A stretch of DNA of 64,000 nt. Origin: Eledone cirrhosa. Its lineage: Eukaryota. Position 1 is the stretch's first letter, and each line of letters starts with the position of its first letter. Shown piece after piece: positions 948-53,231 of the stretch. Location: contig OZ024741.1 in the NCBI GenBank assembly GCA_964016885.1, positions 325,190,001-325,254,000 on the forward strand, given 5' to 3'. The translations under genes and the position numbers were made by a program. A model generated the notes under the pieces. That model worked only from the letters and a program-made list of their open reading frames with translations. It ran no database searches and was not told where the DNA came from.

Positions 948-3900
948 ATCAATTGAGAGTTGGCTGTTTGAACGCGCGTGGCCTGGGCTCAGCTTGGAAG
1001 CAAGCAAAGCTACTAAGTGACCTCAGGTCACGAAATATAGATGTGATGGTTGTTTGCGAGAGTCGGATCAGCAGCGTGCGACAGCTGGCTCCCGCCTTCG
1101 ATGACTTTGAGATGCACGCATCTCTCTGTCAACCCGGAGGCGGGGGGGGGGGGAGTTGCCGTACTGCTGGATAAACGTCTGGCTCTCGACGTACAGATTG
1201 TTCACTCGGACCCGGGGGGTCGATTACTGGTGCTGGACGTCGGAGGCGGTGAAGGCGGGGCTTTCAGACTGGTCGGTCTTTATGCCCCCTTCAGGGCTGA
1301 AAGAGCCGACTTCTTCCAGCGTCTGGAGACTTTTCTAGGAACGTCGCGTTCCCTGCTTTTAGTGGGGGACTGGAATGGAATCCTAGATGCGCGTTGGGAC
1401 TATGCAGGGGCATGTCCCGATAGAGGGGGGTGTAGCAGCCTCAAGGGGTTACTCGATCGATTCGACCTGGTCGATAGATTTCGACTAGATTGTCCAACTG
1501 CGCCAACCTGGACCTGGGCAAACCGCAGTGGACATTCTAGATCCTACCTAGATAGGTTTTTGGTTAGGAGTAAGGATATGTCCAGAATTGATCATGGTTG
1601 GCTATTCAGATCACAAATTAGTGACCTGCGTGGTCAACCTTGATAGAACGCATAGACAGGGTCCCGGTTACTGGAAGATGAACTTGTCCTTGGCGGCAAA
1701 GAAAGATTACAGGAACCGGATTAGTAGCTTAGTTAAGATGCGGTTGACGGGAGCGATCGTCAACAGTAGGTGGTGGGTATCTCTAAAGAGAGAGATTAGA
1801 GTAAGTTCGATAGGTTACAGTAAGGAACTAGCGGCGAATAGAAATAGGAAGGAAAGGGAGTTAACAGATAAACTAGAAGAGGCGATTAGGAGCGGAGACG
1901 TAGCCAGAGTGTTAGCGGCGAGAACGGCGTTGAGCCAGTTCTTTGACGCGAAGCACGAAGGCTGCGTTGTCCGAAGTAAAATACGTGCTTTAGGAAACGA
2001 GGGGACCAAAGCTGTTAGCTGGGCCCGCGTGACAGAAGCCAAGAGTGGGATTAAATCCACCATTCGGTCTTTGCGAGACCAGGATGGACGGGTGATCCTT
2101 GAACCTGAGCGGATGTGCGAGGCCTTTCAAAGGCACTTTGCTCGACTGTTCGGAGGGGGCGGGGGGCCGGACGGGGATGTGGACTTCGGTCCATACCTCG
2201 ACGGTCTATCGCGTCTTTCGAGCGGCAAAACGGAGTGCTGCGAAAGGCAAATCACAGCCACTGAAATCGGGGAAGCGCTCAGCCAATGCAGCAGACGCAA
2301 ATCTCCGGGTCTCGATGGTCTACCATACGAACTTTATTTAGCTATGCCGGTCTTGTTCTCCGAACTCCTCGAGGCTGTCTATTGCAACTGGCAACAGAAC
2401 GGGAGAATTCCCTGTTCTGTGACCAAGGGCGTGGTCACGCTAGTGAGGAAGGACGAGAGCAAGGGGGACGACTTAAGTAACTTTAGGCCCATAACTCTTC
2501 TGAATGCAGAGTTACAGATTTTGGCCAAGGTGTTGGCGAAGAGGTTGGCGCTTGTGGTGGGTGGTTTGGTGGGAGACCCGCAGACATGCGCTATCCAGTC
2601 CAGGTCCATTCACGACAACCTCCACCTCATGCGATACATCATAGAGAGGGTTGGCAACGAACCCGGCTTTGGTGGGGCCCTGATCAACTTGGATCAATCT
2701 AAGGCGTTCGATAGGGTCGACCATGGTTACCTGGATGCGGTGCTAGCGGCGGCGGGCTTCGGACCCGTTTTCAGGGGCTGGATTTCTGCCATGCACAGTG
2801 GCAACATCTACTCTAGGATTAAAGTAAACGGCTACCTCTCGGAGCCGTTTCAAATCACCCGGTCCATCAGACAGGGGTGCCCCCTCGCCTCCCTTCTGTA
2901 CGTATTGACTCTCGAGCCACTGCTGCGGAAGTTGGAGTTGCTGCGGGGCATACCCCTGGAACCGGGATTGCACAAAGCGGTCTCGGCCTATGCCGACGAC
3001 GTAACAGTAATGGTGGCGGACGACTCGGAAATCGGGGCGATCGCCACCATACTGGAGGAATACGAAAGGCTGACGGGGGCTAGGCTGAACCGGGACAAGT
3101 CAGTCGGTTTGCAACTCGGAACGTGGAGGGGCAAACCGATGCCGTTAGACGGTGTCGTCGGGCGGTGGACGGAGGGCCCGGTGAAGCTGCTCGGGGTCTG
3201 GTTCGGACCGGACCTCCAGGTGGAGAAGAATTGGGGCGAGGTGACGAGCAGGGTGTTTGCGCCTTTCCAGAAGTGGGCCAAGTGCAAACTATCACTGAAA
3301 GGTCGGGCGGAGGTGACGAACGCTTACATAGCGTCCGTCATCTGCTACCGCCTGACCGTCGTGCCTTGCCCCAAGGAAAAGATCACCATCATGGAACGCA
3401 TGCTCTTCCAGTTCCTCTGGAAGAAGCGGCCTCCCATGGTGAGGAGATCGATCTGCTGCCAGCACCCTTCGAAAGGAGGGCTGGGTATGCCGTGGCTGTT
3501 GATGCGTAGGCACGCATTGAGGCTACGGCATCTACAGGTATTCCTCACCGGTAAGCCGGTGTGGGCCCCGTTTGTGAGGTGAGCCTTCCCACAGCTCGTC
3601 TCGCTCACCGAGCTGCAATCCTGGGTGAAGCAAAGACCGAGAAAACTGGGCAACTGGCACACCGAGTGTGCCCAGGCGCTCACGGCTATCTGGCAAGCAG
3701 ACCCGACTGTCAGTGGAGAATCCACCTCGACATTCTATAGAGGGCTGGTGGCTAGCAGGGGCGACGACACCCTTGGAGAGTCGCTAGGCATGGAGGAGGA
3801 CGAACTGACCAGCCTGTTCGGTAGAACGTTCGGCCCGGGACCCATGGACAACTTCCAGAGGTCCCTAGCCTGGCAGTGTTACCGGGGGGCTCTGCCCGTT

Positions 3901-4371
3901 CGAGAAAAGCTCTACAGACACGGGCGCCCGGGCAGGGATCCAGCGAAAAAGATCTGTCCCAGATGCGTGCGCGACGAGGAAACCGTTGCGCATGCACTAG
4001 TACACTGCCCGGGCGTTGCCGATCTGTGGGGCTACGTCGAACGACTGCTGTCGCGTGTGGCGCCGATTCGATTAACCGCCGAGTCTGTGGTGAACATCAA
4101 GCCGCCTCCTCCCTTCAGAAATGAAGCAGAGGCGGTCCTTCTGTGCGTAATAGCCATGATGAAAGAGGTTGTGTGGTGGATGCGCCTGAAAGGTCTGAGG
4201 TCGGGTGACTTTCTCTCCGGCCATCACCTGGTTTACTTCTTCCGATACCACTTCGGAAGAAGGATCAGAATGGAGAGAGAAGTGCTTGGCCCCAGACAGT
4301 TTTATGAAAGGTGGGTGAAAGAAGCGAGAATGGCTCGTGTAAATGGGCCTTCTCTCTACATTGTTCTGTAG
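944..4371 (+). pseudogene. ORF2: APE endonuclease + reverse transcriptase + CCHC finger; two frameshifts and one in-frame stop
   Basis: Endonuclease motifs CLNARGL, GDWNG, SYLDRF, SDHK. RT motifs SPGLDGLPYE, NFRPITLLN, LDQSKAFDRV, IRQGCPL, AYADDV. Finger CPRC..EETVAHALVHC. Frameshifts at the G-run ~1142-1153 and ~1590. TGA at 3580-3582 is in frame with ORF 3625-4371. Confidence 0.92.
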
Positions 4372-11887: not shown

Positions 11888-12534
<647 letters not shown>

Positions 12535-12589
12535 TCGGTTTCAACACACGTTTTCAGATAAAGGATCTTGCTAAACAAATTCAGAAACG

Positions 12590-12656
<67 letters not shown>

Positions 12657-12742
12657 GAAAAATTGAACAGGGACAGAACAGAGAGGCAGTACGATAAATG
12701 TTTATTAAATTCACGCTCAGGAGAGTGGGGGGTAGGTGGAGG

Positions 12743-12776
12743 ACGACGTTTCGGGCATAAGCCCTTCTTCAGGTGA
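12743..12776 (-). ncRNA. Minimal hammerhead ribozyme motif at the PLE 3' end
   Basis: Minus strand CTGAAGA-a-gggc ttat gccc-GAAA-cg-TC with palindromic acgt stem III. Stem I is weak. Confidence 0.7.
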
Positions 12777-14101
12777 GAGTTCAAAAGGTGTGTAGGGGAG
12801 TGGTGGAGAGACATATAGCGAAAGGAAACGGTGCGAATGAAAAATTAACAAATAAAGACAAAAATATAATAAATAATAAATAAAAATAAAGCATGATCAA
12901 AATACAAGGAATGAGAACATTTAAAAATAAAGGCATGATCAAAATAAACTGAAATTAAAAGGGGGGTAAACAGGTGGTGGAAGGGTGTGGGGTGAGTAGA
13001 GGTGGAGGCGGGTGGAGTGGGGAGAGGGAGACGGGGTGTCCGAGCGGGGAGGGCTGAAGGTGGTGTGTGTTGTTAGGTGTGCGTGTGTGTGTGTGTATGT
13101 GAAAGTGAGGGTTGGAGGAAGAACGGGGTTGCATGTTCAGGAAGGTGTGTGTGGGGGGTGTTTTTGTGTGTCGGAGGGTCTGTGCGTGTGTGGATAGGGG
13201 GGTGGGGGGGGAGAGGAATCAGGGGGCTGAGGGTGTAAATATGTGGTGGGAAGCACGTGTGTGTGGTTTAAGCGTGTTGTGGGTGTGGGTGACGTGTGGA
13301 TAAAAAAAATTGTTTTGGGATGTGTGTGTGGGTGAGTTATATAGGTGATGGTGTAAGACGATGGTTGAAAGTGGTAAGTTACACGGATGTATGGAGATTT
13401 TGGTTGGAAGTCAAAACGCGTGTGGGTAATCCAAGAAGCGGTGGTCGGAAGAGGAGAGATGTGGGGTGCGCGCGCAACAGGAAGTGGTCAGCAGTGGAAG
13501 TGCTGTGGTCAGTTGGTGCTGAGACAGTGGTCGGAAGGGCATAGCAGCAGTCAGCGGAATGGTAGGGAGGCGAGGATGGGTAGGTGTGAGAGTTGGAGTG
13601 AGGAGGGTGTGTGTGTGTGTATTAGTAGGGGTGTTAGTGGGATGAGTGAGTGTGGAGTGGGGAGAGAAGGGGGTGTGTGGTTCTATGGAGGGAGTGTGGT
13701 GTACTGGTGTGTGTGTAGTTTGGTGAGGAGGTGTTAGTGGGTGTTAGTAGACGGGGGTGGGGAGGGGTGGAATGCAGGTGTGAGTGGGGGTTAGTGGGGG
13801 TAGGGTGTGTAGAGTTGGTGGTGTACGAGGGTGTGTGGGTACGTGTGCGTGGGGTTGGAGGGTGTTAGTGATGTTAGTTGCGTGTGGGGTGGGTGTGTAA
13901 GTGTGTGCGTGTGATAAGGAGGGGGGAGGAGGAGAAGAGGGGAGGGAAGGGATGTTAGTATGTTAGTTGGGGAAGGGTGGTCAGATGAGGGGTGGAGTGG
14001 AGTGGAGGTGTTAGTATTGTTAGTGTGGGGTGGGCGGTGAAAAGGAGGGGTGTGTTAGTGGTGTTAGTGGGGGATAAGTGGGGGAGGGGGGCGGTCGAAC
14101 G

Positions 14102-16905
14102 CTAAAGGAATAAGGGTGGGGAGTTCAGGCCGGGGGGAGTGTGGGTCTGTAAGAGGAAGATAGTACGTTGTTCGACCGTGAGGCGATGGGCGGGTGTTCC
14201 GTGGCACTTGAGTAGGCCACAGACTGTGAGATGGCGTGCGGAGTGTCCAGGGCCACCAAAGTGGCGGGCGATGGGGGAACTGCCCCCGAGACGAATGTCC
14301 CGGAGGTGCTCCGTGACTCGGTCCGCCAGGCGGCGTCCCGTCTGTCCGACATAAGTCGCGCTGCACCTCGTGCAACGAAGTCCGTAGACTAGGTTGGAGG
14401 AGGTGCAGCGGAAGGCATGCCGGACCGAGAGAGGGTGGCCGTTGGGACCCTGGAAGGTGGTGGTGTTGGTGATGTGGGGACAGGTGTTGCAGCGGGGCCT
14501 AGAACAGGGGAAGGAACCGGGGGGGGGGGGGAACGGAGCGTGGGTTGGGGGGTAGGGAGCTGTGGACGAGGAGGGTGCGGAGATTGCGTGCGCGTTTGAA
14601 GGAGGGGAGTGGTGGGGTTGGGAAGATGTGGGAGGTGGAGGGGTCGGACTGGAGGTGTCGGAAGAGGCGGCGGATGGTGCGGTGGAGGGGTAAGGTGGAG
14701 GGGTGGTAGGTGATGGGGAAGGGGAGACGGTGGGTGGGTGTGCGGTGGCGTGGGGTGAGGGTGGTGGAGCGGGGGATAGCACGGGCGCGGGTGAGAGCGG
14801 TGTGGACGAGAGAGGGGGGGTAACCTCTGCGGATGAAATGGCTGACTAGGGAAAGGGCCTGGGACTCGAAGTCAGCATCTCGGCTACAGAGGCGGCGGAT
14901 CCTGAGAAGTTGGGAGTAGGGAATGGAGAGTTTAGTGTGGGTGGGGTGGGAAGAGGTGAAGTCGAGGTAAGAGTGGGAGTCGGTGGGTTTGAAGAAGGCG
15001 GAGGTGACGAGGGAGTGGTGGGAGGGGTCGAAGGCGACGGAGATGTCCAAGAAGTGGACGTGGGTGGTGGAGATAGAGGTGGTGAAGTGGAGGGAGGGGT
15101 GGAAGGAGCAGAAGAAGGAGAGAAAGGAGTCGAGCTGTACTCGGGTGAGGGTCGTGGCTCCGATACAGTCGTCAATGTAACGACCGTACAGTTCGGGCGT
15201 GGGGCCGGTGTACTGGGCAAAGATTTGGGCCTCAACATGGCCAACAAAAAGGTTGGCATAGTTCGGGCCCATTCTTGTGCCCATGGCTACCCCCGTGACC
15301 TGTTGGTAAAACTCACCCGAGAAGGAGAAACAATTTAGGGTGAGGACCAGCTCGGCGAGGCGAAGGAGGGTGGGGGTGGAGGGAAAGGGGGAGGGGCGAA
15401 GGTCGAGGTAGTGTTTGAGGGCGCGAAGGCCGTCGGCGTGGGGGATGACGGTATAGAGGGACTTGATGTCTAGGGTGAAGAGGAATGGCTGAGGGCCGGG
15501 TAGGTAGGTGAAGGAGTCGAAAAGGCGCAGGGCGTGGTTGGTGTCAGAGATGTGGGAGGGGAGGGTGGTGACAAGGGGGCGAGGAGGTAGTCGAGAAAGG
15601 CGGAGATGAGTTCGGTGGGGCAGTTGCAAGCGGAGACGATGGGGCGGCCGGGGTTGTCGGGTTTGTGGAGTTTGGGGAGGAAGTAGATGGTGGGGGTGCG
15701 GGGTGTGCGGACGATGAGGTGGGAAGCGGTGGGGGGGGGGAGGGAGGAGGCGATAAGGTCTTTGATGGTGGAGGAGACTTGTTGTTGGTAGAGGGCGGTG
15801 GGATCGGAGGGTAGAGGGCGGTAAAAGAGGGGGTTACAGAGCTGCCTGAGGGCTTCGGCCCTGTAGAGGTCCGCGCGCCATACCACCACGGCGCCTCCCT
15901 TGTCAGCCGGTTTGATGACGATGTCATCTCGGCTACGGAGGGAGCGGAGAGCGAGGAGTTCGCCCCGTGAGATGTTGTGCCGTTTGGAACGGTGGCGGAA
16001 GTCGAAACGATTTACTGCGCTACGGCTGGCATCGACGAAGGCGTCCAGGGTGCTAAATTGCCCTGGGGCCGGCGTCCAAGAAGATGGTCGTCGGCCCAGG
16101 GCGAGAAACGGGTCTGGGGCGTCCGGAGCCGGTGGCGTTCGGCTGAAATGTGCCTGTAGCTTAGTGCGTCGCACGAATCGCTCGACTTCCGTTCGGGTGC
16201 GGAACTCGTCGCTGAGCGGAGTGTGGGGTATGAAGCGAAGGCCTCTACTAAGGAGTGAGCGCTCAGGTGCGGAGAGGGGGAGGTCAGGGGGTATGGTGAC
16301 AACAAGGGGTGGGGTTTGGGTGTTAGGGGAGGGAAGGGAGGGTGTGGTGAGGGGTGGAGATTGGGTGGGGGTGGGGGTCGGGGGAGAGGTGGGGAGTGGT
16401 GGGCGTATGGGGATGGGCGGGTGGTGGTGGATGGGGGGGGGGGGAGGAGTGAGTGTAGCTTGCGAGCTTTGGTGGAGCTGAGGAACGAGAAGAGGTTGTG
16501 GTTGAGGTTGTGGATGAAGGAGAGGATGGCTTGGGCGAGGAGGGGGTGGCAGGTGGAGTAAAGGCGGAGGAGGGTGGGGGTCAGTTGGTGGTCAAGTAGG
16601 CGGAGGGTGGAACGGGAGGCGCGGATGGAGTTGCGCATCAGAAGGCGTGAGGATCGGGTGAGGATACGTTGCGCGGAGGGGAAGGCAGCGGGGGAGGGGT
16701 GGAAGTGTAGACGGAAGCCAAGGGGGATAAGGTGGAGGCGGAGGCAGTGGCTGAGGAAATGGATGTGGCTGGAGTGCCGGGTTTTGGCGAAGAGAAGGTA
16801 GGAGAGTTGAAGGGCGGAGGGGAGATAGCAGGGTGGAAGGAGGCGGGTGAGGAAAAGTTTGAGGCGATTGTGGAGTTGGTGGAGAAAGGATCTCAGGTTG
16901 GCCAT
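14102..16905 (-). CDS. PLE polyprotein (~930 aa): reverse transcriptase + GIY-YIG endonuclease; three apparent frameshifts at C/G homopolymers
   Basis: RT motifs IKPADKGGAVVVW, YFLPKLHK..PGRPIVS, LDIKSLYT, GVAMGTRMGPNYANLF, RYIDD, FLDI. Cys motif CSRPRCNTC and GIY-YIG NLVYGLRCTRCSATYVGQT..EH..GLN. No in-frame stops seen along the joined path. Confidence 0.88.
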
Positions 16906-17072
16906 GATGGGCGTTGGGTGAAAGCAGGGGGAGGGATGAGAGGACGGGGGTGTGAAGCGGGGTGGAGTGAACGAAGGGGTGAGTGCGAAGGATAGGCAGA
17001 GACGGGGAAGGGAAAAAGAACCAGAAAAACGTAGGGAGGGGGGGGGGGAGTAAACACCGGAAAATTAAAGAC

Positions 17073-17220
17073 AAAAAATCATAAAGGTAATAACACAGGC
17101 GATCGTGAACAAAAAATCATAGAAATATCATAAAGGTAATGACACAGGCGATCGTGAACAAAAAATCATAGAAATATCATAAAGGTAATGACACAGGCGA
17201 TCGTGAACAAAAAATCATGG
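17073..17220. repeat. 49-bp tandem repeat, ~3 copies, in the PLE 5' leader
   Basis: aaaaaatcatagaaatatcataaaggtaatgacacaggcgatcgtgaac at 17111 and 17160, with a partial copy at 17073. Confidence 0.9.
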
Positions 17221-17474
17221 AATACAATTGTAGGAACACAGGCAAAGAATCATATACGGAAAAAAAGGGGGGTAACAAAATCAAACAGAGGTAATGTGTG
17301 GAAGGAAAGACAAAGTGTGGGAAGGTGTGTAAAGTTCAGAGCACCAATACTAATACCATATATATTTTATTCTCCTGTTAGTAGTATCATTATTACTAGC
17401 TACATTACTGTTAGTGGTATGATTATTACTAGCTACATTACTATAGTTACTATAAGCTCTGATATATATATTCA

Positions 17475-17955
17475 AGCGCGTTCGTAATCTTCGGAACCTC
17501 CTCGTCTGCAGCATCCTTCCTCCCCCAACTCATGTCCTGGATCACACCCCTGGTCCCAACTCCGCTACCATACATGCAGATTTATCTCCGGCACCACCAC
17601 CATTTTCCGTTCCACTGGCTGGTCCTTCCGGATTAGGGACTATTTCAGCTGCAACCTCTACCAGCCTTGTTTATGGGCTCCGTTGCATTCTTTGCGGAGC
17701 CATCTACCTTGGTCAAACTAGCCGTCGCCTGGCCGACAGATTTGTTGAACACCTTCGGAACATCCGAGTCGGCAATCCGACTCCGATCTCCCGACATTCT
17801 CGATTCGCCGACCACTCGTCACCTTAGTGTCTTCGGGCTCGTACATTGTGCCGGACACGCTGACTCGCGCTGGCGAAGAGAACAGCAACTTATTTTTTCT
17901 TTATAAACTTTTAATCCCCATGGCCTTAATGCTCCACTCTTCTTCCTTTAATCTG
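17475..17955 (+). pseudogene. Decayed GIY-YIG C-terminal fragment of a related PLE
   Basis: YLGQTSRRLADRFVEHLRNIRVG and LSVFGLVHCAGHADSRWRREQQLIFSL*TFNPHGLN are homologous to 14102-14400. Confidence 0.85.
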
Positions 17956-18136
17956 ATCTGCCATATACACTCTATCACATACTAAAGATATCTTACGTCA
18001 CAAACTCATTACAACATACACACACTCTTACATACAAATCAGTTAGATACTTTACATGTACACAATATACACTTCAACATACATACGCACGTTAAAATTT
18101 AATCATATACTCACACATACAAATCCACATATAGGC

Positions 18137-18252
<116 letters not shown>

Positions 18253-49568: not shown

Positions 49569-49666
<98 letters not shown>

Positions 49667-49676
49667 ATATATATAT

Positions 49677-51518
<1,842 letters not shown>

Positions 51519-51520
51519 TA

Positions 51521-51862
51521 GTGAAGGCATAACGCTTAGTAGTTAGAGCGTTGGATTTGCAATCGTGAGATTGTGAGTTCGATCCTCGGACCGAGTGATT
51601 GGTGTGTTCTTGAGCAAAACACTTTATTTCACGTTGCTCCAGTTCACTCAGCTATAGAAATGAGTTGCCACGTTACTGGTGCCAAACTGTATCGGTCATT
51701 GCCTTTCCCTTGGACAACATCGGTGGCGAAAGAGGAGGCTGGTATGCATGGGTAACTGTTGTTCTTCCTCAAACAACTTTGTCCGTACATGCGTCTCGGA
51801 GTGAAGCTTTCTGGGTGCAAATTCCATGGTATTCGTGACCGAAGGAGGACTTTACTTTACCT
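51521..51862 (+). mobile_element. tRNA-derived SINE, second family (~340 bp)
   Basis: cttagtagttagagcg..gagttcgatcct..cttgagcaaaacactttatttcacgttgctccagttcactcagct, ending in a ctttactttac tail. Confidence 0.75.
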
Positions 51863-51997
51863 ATATATATATATAAATATAAATTAGCGAGAATCGTATT
51901 TCGGCTATTGGAAATTAGCGCAAAACAACTTCCGAGATGTGTAGCAAGCGCTCAATAGAAGCTAGTGAACTAGAGCAACAACATAAGTTAAAGACCA

Positions 51998-52033
<36 letters not shown>

Positions 52034-52072
52034 ATGTATATATATATATAAATAAATATATATATATATATG

Positions 52073-52133
<61 letters not shown>

Positions 52134-52661
52134 AATAAATAAATATATATATATATATAAATACACTGACACACACACACACACACATATACATGAGAAA
52201 ATTCATGATGAAAAACTATACAAGAGAACAAGACAATAAATAATGATACATACATACACACACACATAAATATCATAGTGTATTAAGTCATCTGACCATA
52301 TAAATTCAATTCTTTGATATATGAATGTTAAAGATGAGATAATGTTACTAATCTTGTGATGAAGCTAATTAAATTATGTTTACGGTTAAACATCGAAAAA
52401 TAATGGAACGGACACGATCTTTACTGATATTTATTAAATCAGACAGCAGACAGGGTTTCCTGTTTCACAGTTACATACTCAGTCATCTGCAGAGGGAGAC
52501 GTTACATAACTATAATTTATACTAGCAGAATGGCCCGGTGTTGCTCGGATTTGCTCTAGGGTTCTTATATATATTTGATATATATTTATCCTTATCGAGC
52601 CTCGTGAAATAAATACGTTTGTTTATATTTTGTTATTGTATATGCAAAAATATCTGTACTC

Positions 52662-52716
<55 letters not shown>

Positions 52717-52723
<7 letters not shown>

Positions 52724-53075
52724 CGTAAAATAAGAAAATAAAAAAAAATAAAAATTTTTTTAAATTAACTTACTTACTTAAATTTTCACTCCAACTAATT
52801 AGTTTCTGCAATGGGATAAAGACAGTTACGTAATGAACTGTTGAGAATTACATTGCGTCATCAGGGAGGTCATTCTCAGCCGAGTCTCCAGGCAATGCGC
52901 GGACACTGGGGACTCATATAAAAATAATAATAATTCGGCAACTGGAACAACTATCGAGGACTGGATTCCAGTCACCGAAAATTCTCACTGCCACTGATCA
53001 TATGGCCGATTCTAAAGAATCAATCACGTGACACAGAGGCTAGTCAGTAGGAATGGGATGGTAAGATGACAGACA
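52717..53075 (-). mobile_element. More diverged partial copy of the 557-bp unit with an intact hammerhead core (52789-52868)
   Basis: Matches 50450-50795 in reverse complement with scattered substitutions. Confidence 0.85.
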
Positions 53076-53231
53076 ACAGTACAGAGAAGTACGGAATACC
53101 TCGGCCTCGGGATGGTGTCGTAGATTACCATTCGTCGTAGATTACCAGGATTTGTTTCCGCGCGAAGAAAATCAATACTTAATCGCGAAATAAATACTTT
53201 TGTTTATATTTTGTTGTTGTCTGCAAAAATA

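Follow-up and report, generated by a model that had tools for sequence, protein, structure and literature searches.

Paired ACUAAY motifs form a selected 3′ UTR array in one clade of Penelope-like elements and are probable sites for a host STAR protein

Results

The element and its family

The window, a 64-kb stretch of DNA from an animal genome of 3.0 Gb, carries an endonuclease-bearing Penelope-like element on its minus strand (Table 1), which was assigned to the Neptune/Nematis type by its reverse transcriptase (RT), linker and endonuclease features. The copy adjoins (TA)n, and its 5′ end is possibly truncated. Its ORF is interrupted by frameshifts, while other copies have open frames of 822-987 aa. 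The open copies and homologues have a single ORF with RT plus a GIY-YIG endonuclease at the C-terminus, as expected of EN+ Penelope-like elements; the Pfam RVT_1 and GIY-YIG matches in the coding region were weak and both below the cut-off. The linker CSRPRCNTC in front of the endonuclease agrees with the CX2-5CxxC definition given for EN+ elements (PMC8557442). There are 984 homologues of the coding region, and most of the best ones share 42-59% identity with it. A degenerate pattern for the end of the ORF matched the genome 1,112 times and a control pattern 0 times, thus the family numbers more than a thousand copies (over 1,100).

Table 1. Features of the element copy and of its 3′ UTR in the window
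Feature	Position	Strand	Basis and remarks
Penelope-like element copy, endonuclease-bearing, Neptune/Nematis type	12655..17341	-	BLAST against long and tandem copies L343, L063, L064
AATAAA, candidate signal	12701..12706	-	sequence; ~45 nt before the element 3′ end
Minimal hammerhead-like motif (CUGAAGA, stem II, GAAAC, GUC)	12745..12772	-	by eye; stem II folds
ACUAAY array, six pairs and one single	13621..14068	-	3′ UTR rich in C/A and poor in G, predicted to be unstructured
Pair 6, linker ACCCCT, second motif ACTAAT	13621..13638	-	sequence
Pair 5, linker ACCC	13733..13748	-	sequence
Unpaired motif	13790..13795	-	older subfamilies have ACTGAC, as does one contig from another organism
Pair 4, linker ATC; retained copy of the pair duplicated in middle subfamilies	13864..13878	-	
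Pair 3, linker AT; the oldest subfamily has AAT	13954..13967	-	sequence, family alignment
Pair 2, linker AAT	14010..14024	-	sequence
Pair 1, linker ACC	14054..14068	-	sequence
Coding region	14102..16905	-	N-terminal domain, RT, C-x4-C-x2-C linker, GIY-YIG; ORFs and translations

The stop codon at 14102-14104 is followed by a 3′ UTR of about 1.4 kb, which contains the array, and the element terminates in (TA)n. The hammerhead-like motif was recognized by the hammerhead core consensus, and the same core pattern was also matched in relatives; in the window copy it is a candidate, as an Rfam scan of 12500-18100 gave no hammerhead match and its sole match was a chance one on (TA)n. The sense strand of the element is extremely C-rich and G-poor, with a GC skew of 0.5-0.8 on the plus strand. 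The 5′ UTR holds a 49-nt unit repeated three times (17074-17222), and the number of units differs among copies. In another copy (L021), a 42-nt segment from the U-rich 3′ region has been amplified into a long tandem array. Apart from this family, the window contains an APE-type LINE at 1047-4371 on the plus strand, where Exo_endo_phos, RVT_1 and zf-RVT are matched across three frames.

Paired ACUAAY motifs in the 3′ UTR

The array lies on the sense strand between the stop codon and the 3′ end of the element, and is copied in many insertions. All 13 motif positions reported by the first-pass annotation were checked and matched, and 12 of the motifs do form six pairs, with start-to-start distances of 9, 9, 8, 9, 10 and 12 nt and linkers of 2-6 nt. 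Its wording that they come immediately after the stop codon is right as to side and too close as to distance, with the first motif beginning 33 nt downstream. The stretch consists of 54% C and 3% G, and the predicted minimum free energy of -2.3 kcal/mol over 502 nt corresponds to almost no structure, thus the motifs would lie in a single-stranded context.

The proposed enrichment withstood shuffling. Against the 13 motifs observed in 13600-14101, dinucleotide shuffles had a mean of 0.9 (maximum 5 in 2000 shuffles), sequences simulated from a second-order Markov model averaged 3.4 (maximum 10 in 1000 runs), and all 13 TAA triplets of this region fall inside ACTAAY. The 64 kb as a whole are not enriched, with 72 motifs found vs. 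115 expected, so the excess is local. The other ACTAAY cluster of the window stems from direct and inverted repeats of ~400-700 nt at ~49600-53100, which carry an ACTAATTAGT palindrome and are unrelated to the array.

As the annotation had noted, the spacers are not simple tandem copies, in that no long period was found; a duplication of ~70 nt nonetheless gave rise to one of the pairs, and one of the two resulting copies was later deleted. The absence of a long period, together with cores more constrained than spacers, argues against a decayed minisatellite.

Constraint within the family

The first 100 of the 1,112 ORF-end matches were taken regardless of their UTR; 89 of them carry at least 11 motifs and 82 at least five pairs. 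Four truncated or deleted copies with fewer than six motifs were dropped beforehand, and the 96 copies with at least six were aligned and form a ladder of subfamilies. An initial motif-versus-spacer count (0.5% vs. 1.4%) included copies selected by motif; it was discarded for this reason and redone on these ORF-end-chosen copies. A tree of the whole element was abandoned as too noisy because of truncated flanks.

Sites were scored as lineage-level when a substitution was common to a clade of at least five copies. None of the 70 sites in paired ACTAA cores qualified, compared with 66 of 483 in the spacers (Fisher 1e-4; 96 copies), and block permutations never reached this contrast (0/20,000). 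Thresholds 3, 4 and 8 agree, with cores 1/70 and spacers 78/483 at threshold 3. Lineage-level sites were found at 23/168 positions of the 12-nt local flanks (p 4e-4 vs. cores), and in the endonuclease ORF at 6/133 second, 10/133 first and 18/86 fourfold positions. A count made without a tree gave 0/70 vs. 61/483, or 0/56 vs. 33/191 when restricted to A/T sites. The ratio of lineage to private changes was 0:46 in the cores vs. 79:577 (p 0.006). Private substitutions are also rarer in the motifs, at ~0.55-0.7 of the spacer rate, thus mutational effects or noise in the alignment may account for some of the contrast. When 39 repeated 5-mers were compared, ACTAA ranked first (2/85 sites hit), closely followed by TACAC (1/30) and CACCC (4/84). 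CACCC, a comparatively stable 5-mer in this UTR, could mark a context for poly(C)-binding proteins.

The pairs occupy the same columns in all four subfamily groups, which have 6, 7, 7 and 6 pairs, and none of these groups lost a pair through a point change. The sole trunk change within a paired hexamer was T to C at the Y position. The unpaired motif at 13790 is derived from ACTGAC and is less constrained, as this ancestral form is found in older subfamilies and another organism. Among contigs of other organisms, only those of run X5 covered much of the array (X6-X10 gave short contigs or no cover, X11 one 144-nt piece). They have 16 substituted sites in 13613-13895, none of them listed in the paired motifs and one in the unpaired motif, which at a depth of 3-7 is too few to be significant alone.

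Older lineages and relatives

Extinct relatives were found through degenerate and DNA searches, and conservation of motifs over spacers, which the annotation had proposed as a check, extends from the family to three of these lineages. ACTAAY occurs 81 times vs. 19.5 expected in lineage X (20 copies), 25 times vs. 4.9 in lineage Y (7 copies) and 65 times vs. 16.4 in lineage Z (23 of 30 loci), counts that are descriptive and not tests, since copies within a family are not independent. On the opposite strand the motif occurs 0-2 times vs. 25-81 on the sense strand in these lineages. ACTAAC is the top hexamer in Z, homopolymer and dinucleotide repeats aside. The UTRs of X, Y and Z align with that of the window only in short patches. 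Judged by eye, X has about three pairs with different linkers (TTC, AT, ACA). Z has one triplet and an ACTAAC-TTAAC-ACTAAC cluster, which contains a UUAAC half-site. The linkers in these older lineages are thus new.

The array is missing from family W (6 copies, ~60% protein identity; 4 motifs vs. 4.6 expected) and from family V (30 loci; 31 motifs vs. 35.4 expected). In the coding-DNA tree, W branches outside with a support of 100 and V groups with Z as its sister with a support of 99; the array was thus either gained once and lost once, or gained on two occasions. Many V copies retain a single ACTAAT ~400 nt past the stop, and a diverged V fragment with the GIY-YIG end and a truncated 3′ UTR lies in the window at 17456-18140 on the plus strand, head-to-head with the main element. 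Metagenomes contained relatives at 80 loci, of which 36 reached the C-terminus and 31 had a usable 3′ flank; these 31 had no array and 10 motifs vs. 6.5 expected. The absence from W, V and the 31 metagenomic relatives indicates that the array is clade-specific and not required by all such elements. A scan of viral contigs found no relative, and a genome-wide pattern with a 5-nt linker led to satellites and to no further element family among the 100 of 724 matches listed.

A host gene of the Quaking type

The genome encodes an orthologue of QKI/HOW/GLD-1, recognized as QUA1, KH and QUA2 exons on one contig (C9), and the best matches of the KH exon are GLD-1 and QKI. A separate SF1 is also present. 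The QKI-type gene has two near-identical tandem QUA2-like exons (C9, 33240000-33249999), which might be used in a mutually exclusive manner.

The Quaking response element is described as NACUAAY with a UAAY within 20 nt (N1-20), bound by QUA1-linked dimers (PMC9786888). Judged by ACUAAY with a second UAAY within 1-20 nt, all six pairs would be bipartite sites of this kind. Two ACUAAC placed 9 nt apart are reported as a high-affinity QKI site which excludes SF1 (PMC13004596).

Discussion

The array is real, selected and clade-specific, and represents a known motif in a new setting. Our main reading, to which we assign a probability of roughly 0.6, is that the ACUAAY pairs are a selected 3′ UTR array in one clade of Penelope-like elements and probably sites for dimers of a host STAR protein of the Quaking/HOW/GLD-1 type. 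The recruitment of such a protein by the element, as suggested by the annotation, is thus backed in part: enrichment, conservation and a QKI-type host gene speak for it, but it does not generalize to W, V or distant relatives.

The array could instead lack a function and be the by-product of short duplications within a UTR rich in C and A, its apparent conservation reflecting low mutability and easy alignment of the motif. The one duplicated pair, the lower private rates in the motifs, the near-equal stability of some other repeated 5-mers and the lack of arrays in W and V would all fit. However, the constraint survives controls for composition, flanks and private rate and exceeds that on second codon positions, the linkers vary between pairs and between lineages while the cores stay, and the enrichment persists in Z, which is ~0.5 substitutions per site away (internal branches of the coding-DNA tree). 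We therefore regard a by-product of this kind as unlikely.

Splicing offers another role for the motifs: SF1 might use them as branch points, or QKI might occupy them, prevent the use of branch points and thereby retain an unspliced transcript in the nucleus. The core of the branch point is ACUAAC, an SF1 gene is present in the host, paired ACUAAC is reported to block SF1 via QKI (PMC13004596), and intron retention is described for Penelope elements (PMC4209133, PMC8557442). There is also a CCAG after pair 5 at 13705, with a similar one in older lineages. On the other hand, the 502-nt array has just 2 AG and is C/A-rich with no U-rich tract, and the U of UACUAAC is present in only 4 of the 13 motifs. 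Pairs would not be preferred by SF1, which is a monomer. Deletions inspected by eye in 14 copies included none that resembled intron removal at the motifs, and a splicing role appears improbable.

The motifs might serve the telomerase-like RT of the element, either as its recognition site or as CUAAC templates for internal priming on telomere-like DNA; CUAAC resembles a telomerase RNA template. The RTs of Penelope elements are related to telomerase and are able to initiate internally (PMC11167929), and endonuclease-less relatives are described as pairing with telomeric overhangs (PMC8557442). We nevertheless consider this very improbable: the spacing within pairs is 8-12 and not 6, no array occurs in close families whose protein is 60% identical, and the 3′-truncated copies inspected (L337, L263, L308, L290) never end at a motif, two of them ending in (TA)n, so that these junctions gave no sign of telomere-type priming at the motifs. 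In L337 and L308, truncation occurred at CCTT(AT) followed by (TA)n, a pattern suggestive of priming at an internal position through microhomology to the target. Least probable of all is an action at the DNA level, with a host transcription factor recognizing GTTAGT/ACTAAC and the array serving the next tandem copy as enhancer or promoter, for although head-to-tail copies exist (L343, L063) and Penelope promoters are placed in terminal repeats (PMC8557442), the motifs keep a single orientation in X, Y and Z (partly explained by strand composition), their 8-12 nt spacing varies with no helical phase, and the array lies ~1 kb from the element 3′ end.

Binding of a host STAR protein to the array is quite likely, given six sites of the Quaking response type in RNA predicted to be unstructured, fixed cores, a tolerated Y, free linker length and a host gene with QUA1, KH and QUA2. 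The motifs have stayed unchanged while the sequence between them drifted, which also suggests that the element RNA recruits a Quaking-type host protein. Each pair would hold one STAR dimer on single-stranded RNA, and the UTR could thus be covered by six or seven of them. It would be the master copies, and not the host, on which selection acts; the constraint falls on changes passed on via transposition, and the sites should thus help the element.

The weakest part of the STAR reading concerns the benefit. The bound protein might protect the full-length RNA and time its translation in germ cells, thereby raising heritable transposition, a chain that we propose tentatively. We favour it because STAR proteins are described as acting on 3′ UTRs in germ cells, as with HOW, which binds CUAAC there in the fly (PMC12868882). 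Known STAR effects on 3′ UTRs run both ways and include destabilization and repression, so the outcome is not readable from the sequence. Taken further, a clade of telomerase-related retrotransposons may have captured the Quaking/GLD-1 germline programme of its host: the row of dimer sites would have grown, with about three pairs in an extinct lineage and six or seven in the lineage that later produced over a thousand copies, and the bound STAR protein would store, route or time the RNA for germline transposition. This scenario is possible and we offer it as speculative.

To our knowledge, the host factors of Penelope-like elements are essentially unknown. The one in vitro study considered here concerns the element's own protein. 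A selected array of STAR sites points to a specific host protein and provides a simple mutational test. If our reading is true, a retrotransposon maintains binding sites for an RNA regulator of development and the germline, and a landing pad for several Quaking dimers is available as a natural model. Its more than a thousand copies could scatter strong Quaking or branch-point sites across host introns. A full-text literature search returned no title or abstract opening that ties a Penelope element or another retrotransposon to an array of Quaking sites; most subscription papers, supplements and Repbase/Dfam were outside its scope, thus a prior mention is possible. The sole paper found with both 'Penelope-like' and 'Quaking' treats them separately in the passages considered (PMC11722881).

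Comparison with known systems

The window element has RT, the Cys linker, C-terminal GIY-YIG, a microsatellite target and tandem copies in common with known Neptune/Nematis elements, which are described with a minimal hammerhead near the 3′ end (PMC8557442, PMC4209133); the window copy has a candidate for it. It differs from them in the array of motifs borne by its ~1.4-kb 3′ UTR, and many distant relatives have the hammerhead ~100 nt past the stop and no array. The core, the bipartite spacing and the predicted single-stranded context are like those reported for cellular Quaking response elements and the tandem ACUAAC of RAI14 intron 10, where the spacing is 9 nt (PMC9786888, PMC13004596). Unlike the cellular sites, those of the element comprise six or seven complete pairs within 450-600 nt, and the constraint is on the lineage of a selfish element. 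The targets of Drosophila HOW(S) are similar in having CUAAC in the 3′ UTR and an invertebrate STAR protein with a germline role, but they are cellular mRNAs, stabilized or destabilized depending on the transcript, and the passages considered name no transposon among them (PMC12868882). Dengue virus 4 has a QKI site in the 3′ UTR of a parasitic RNA, as may be the case here; in the virus it is one site and is reported as restrictive (PMC5959249), whereas here many candidate sites have been kept by the lineage of the element.
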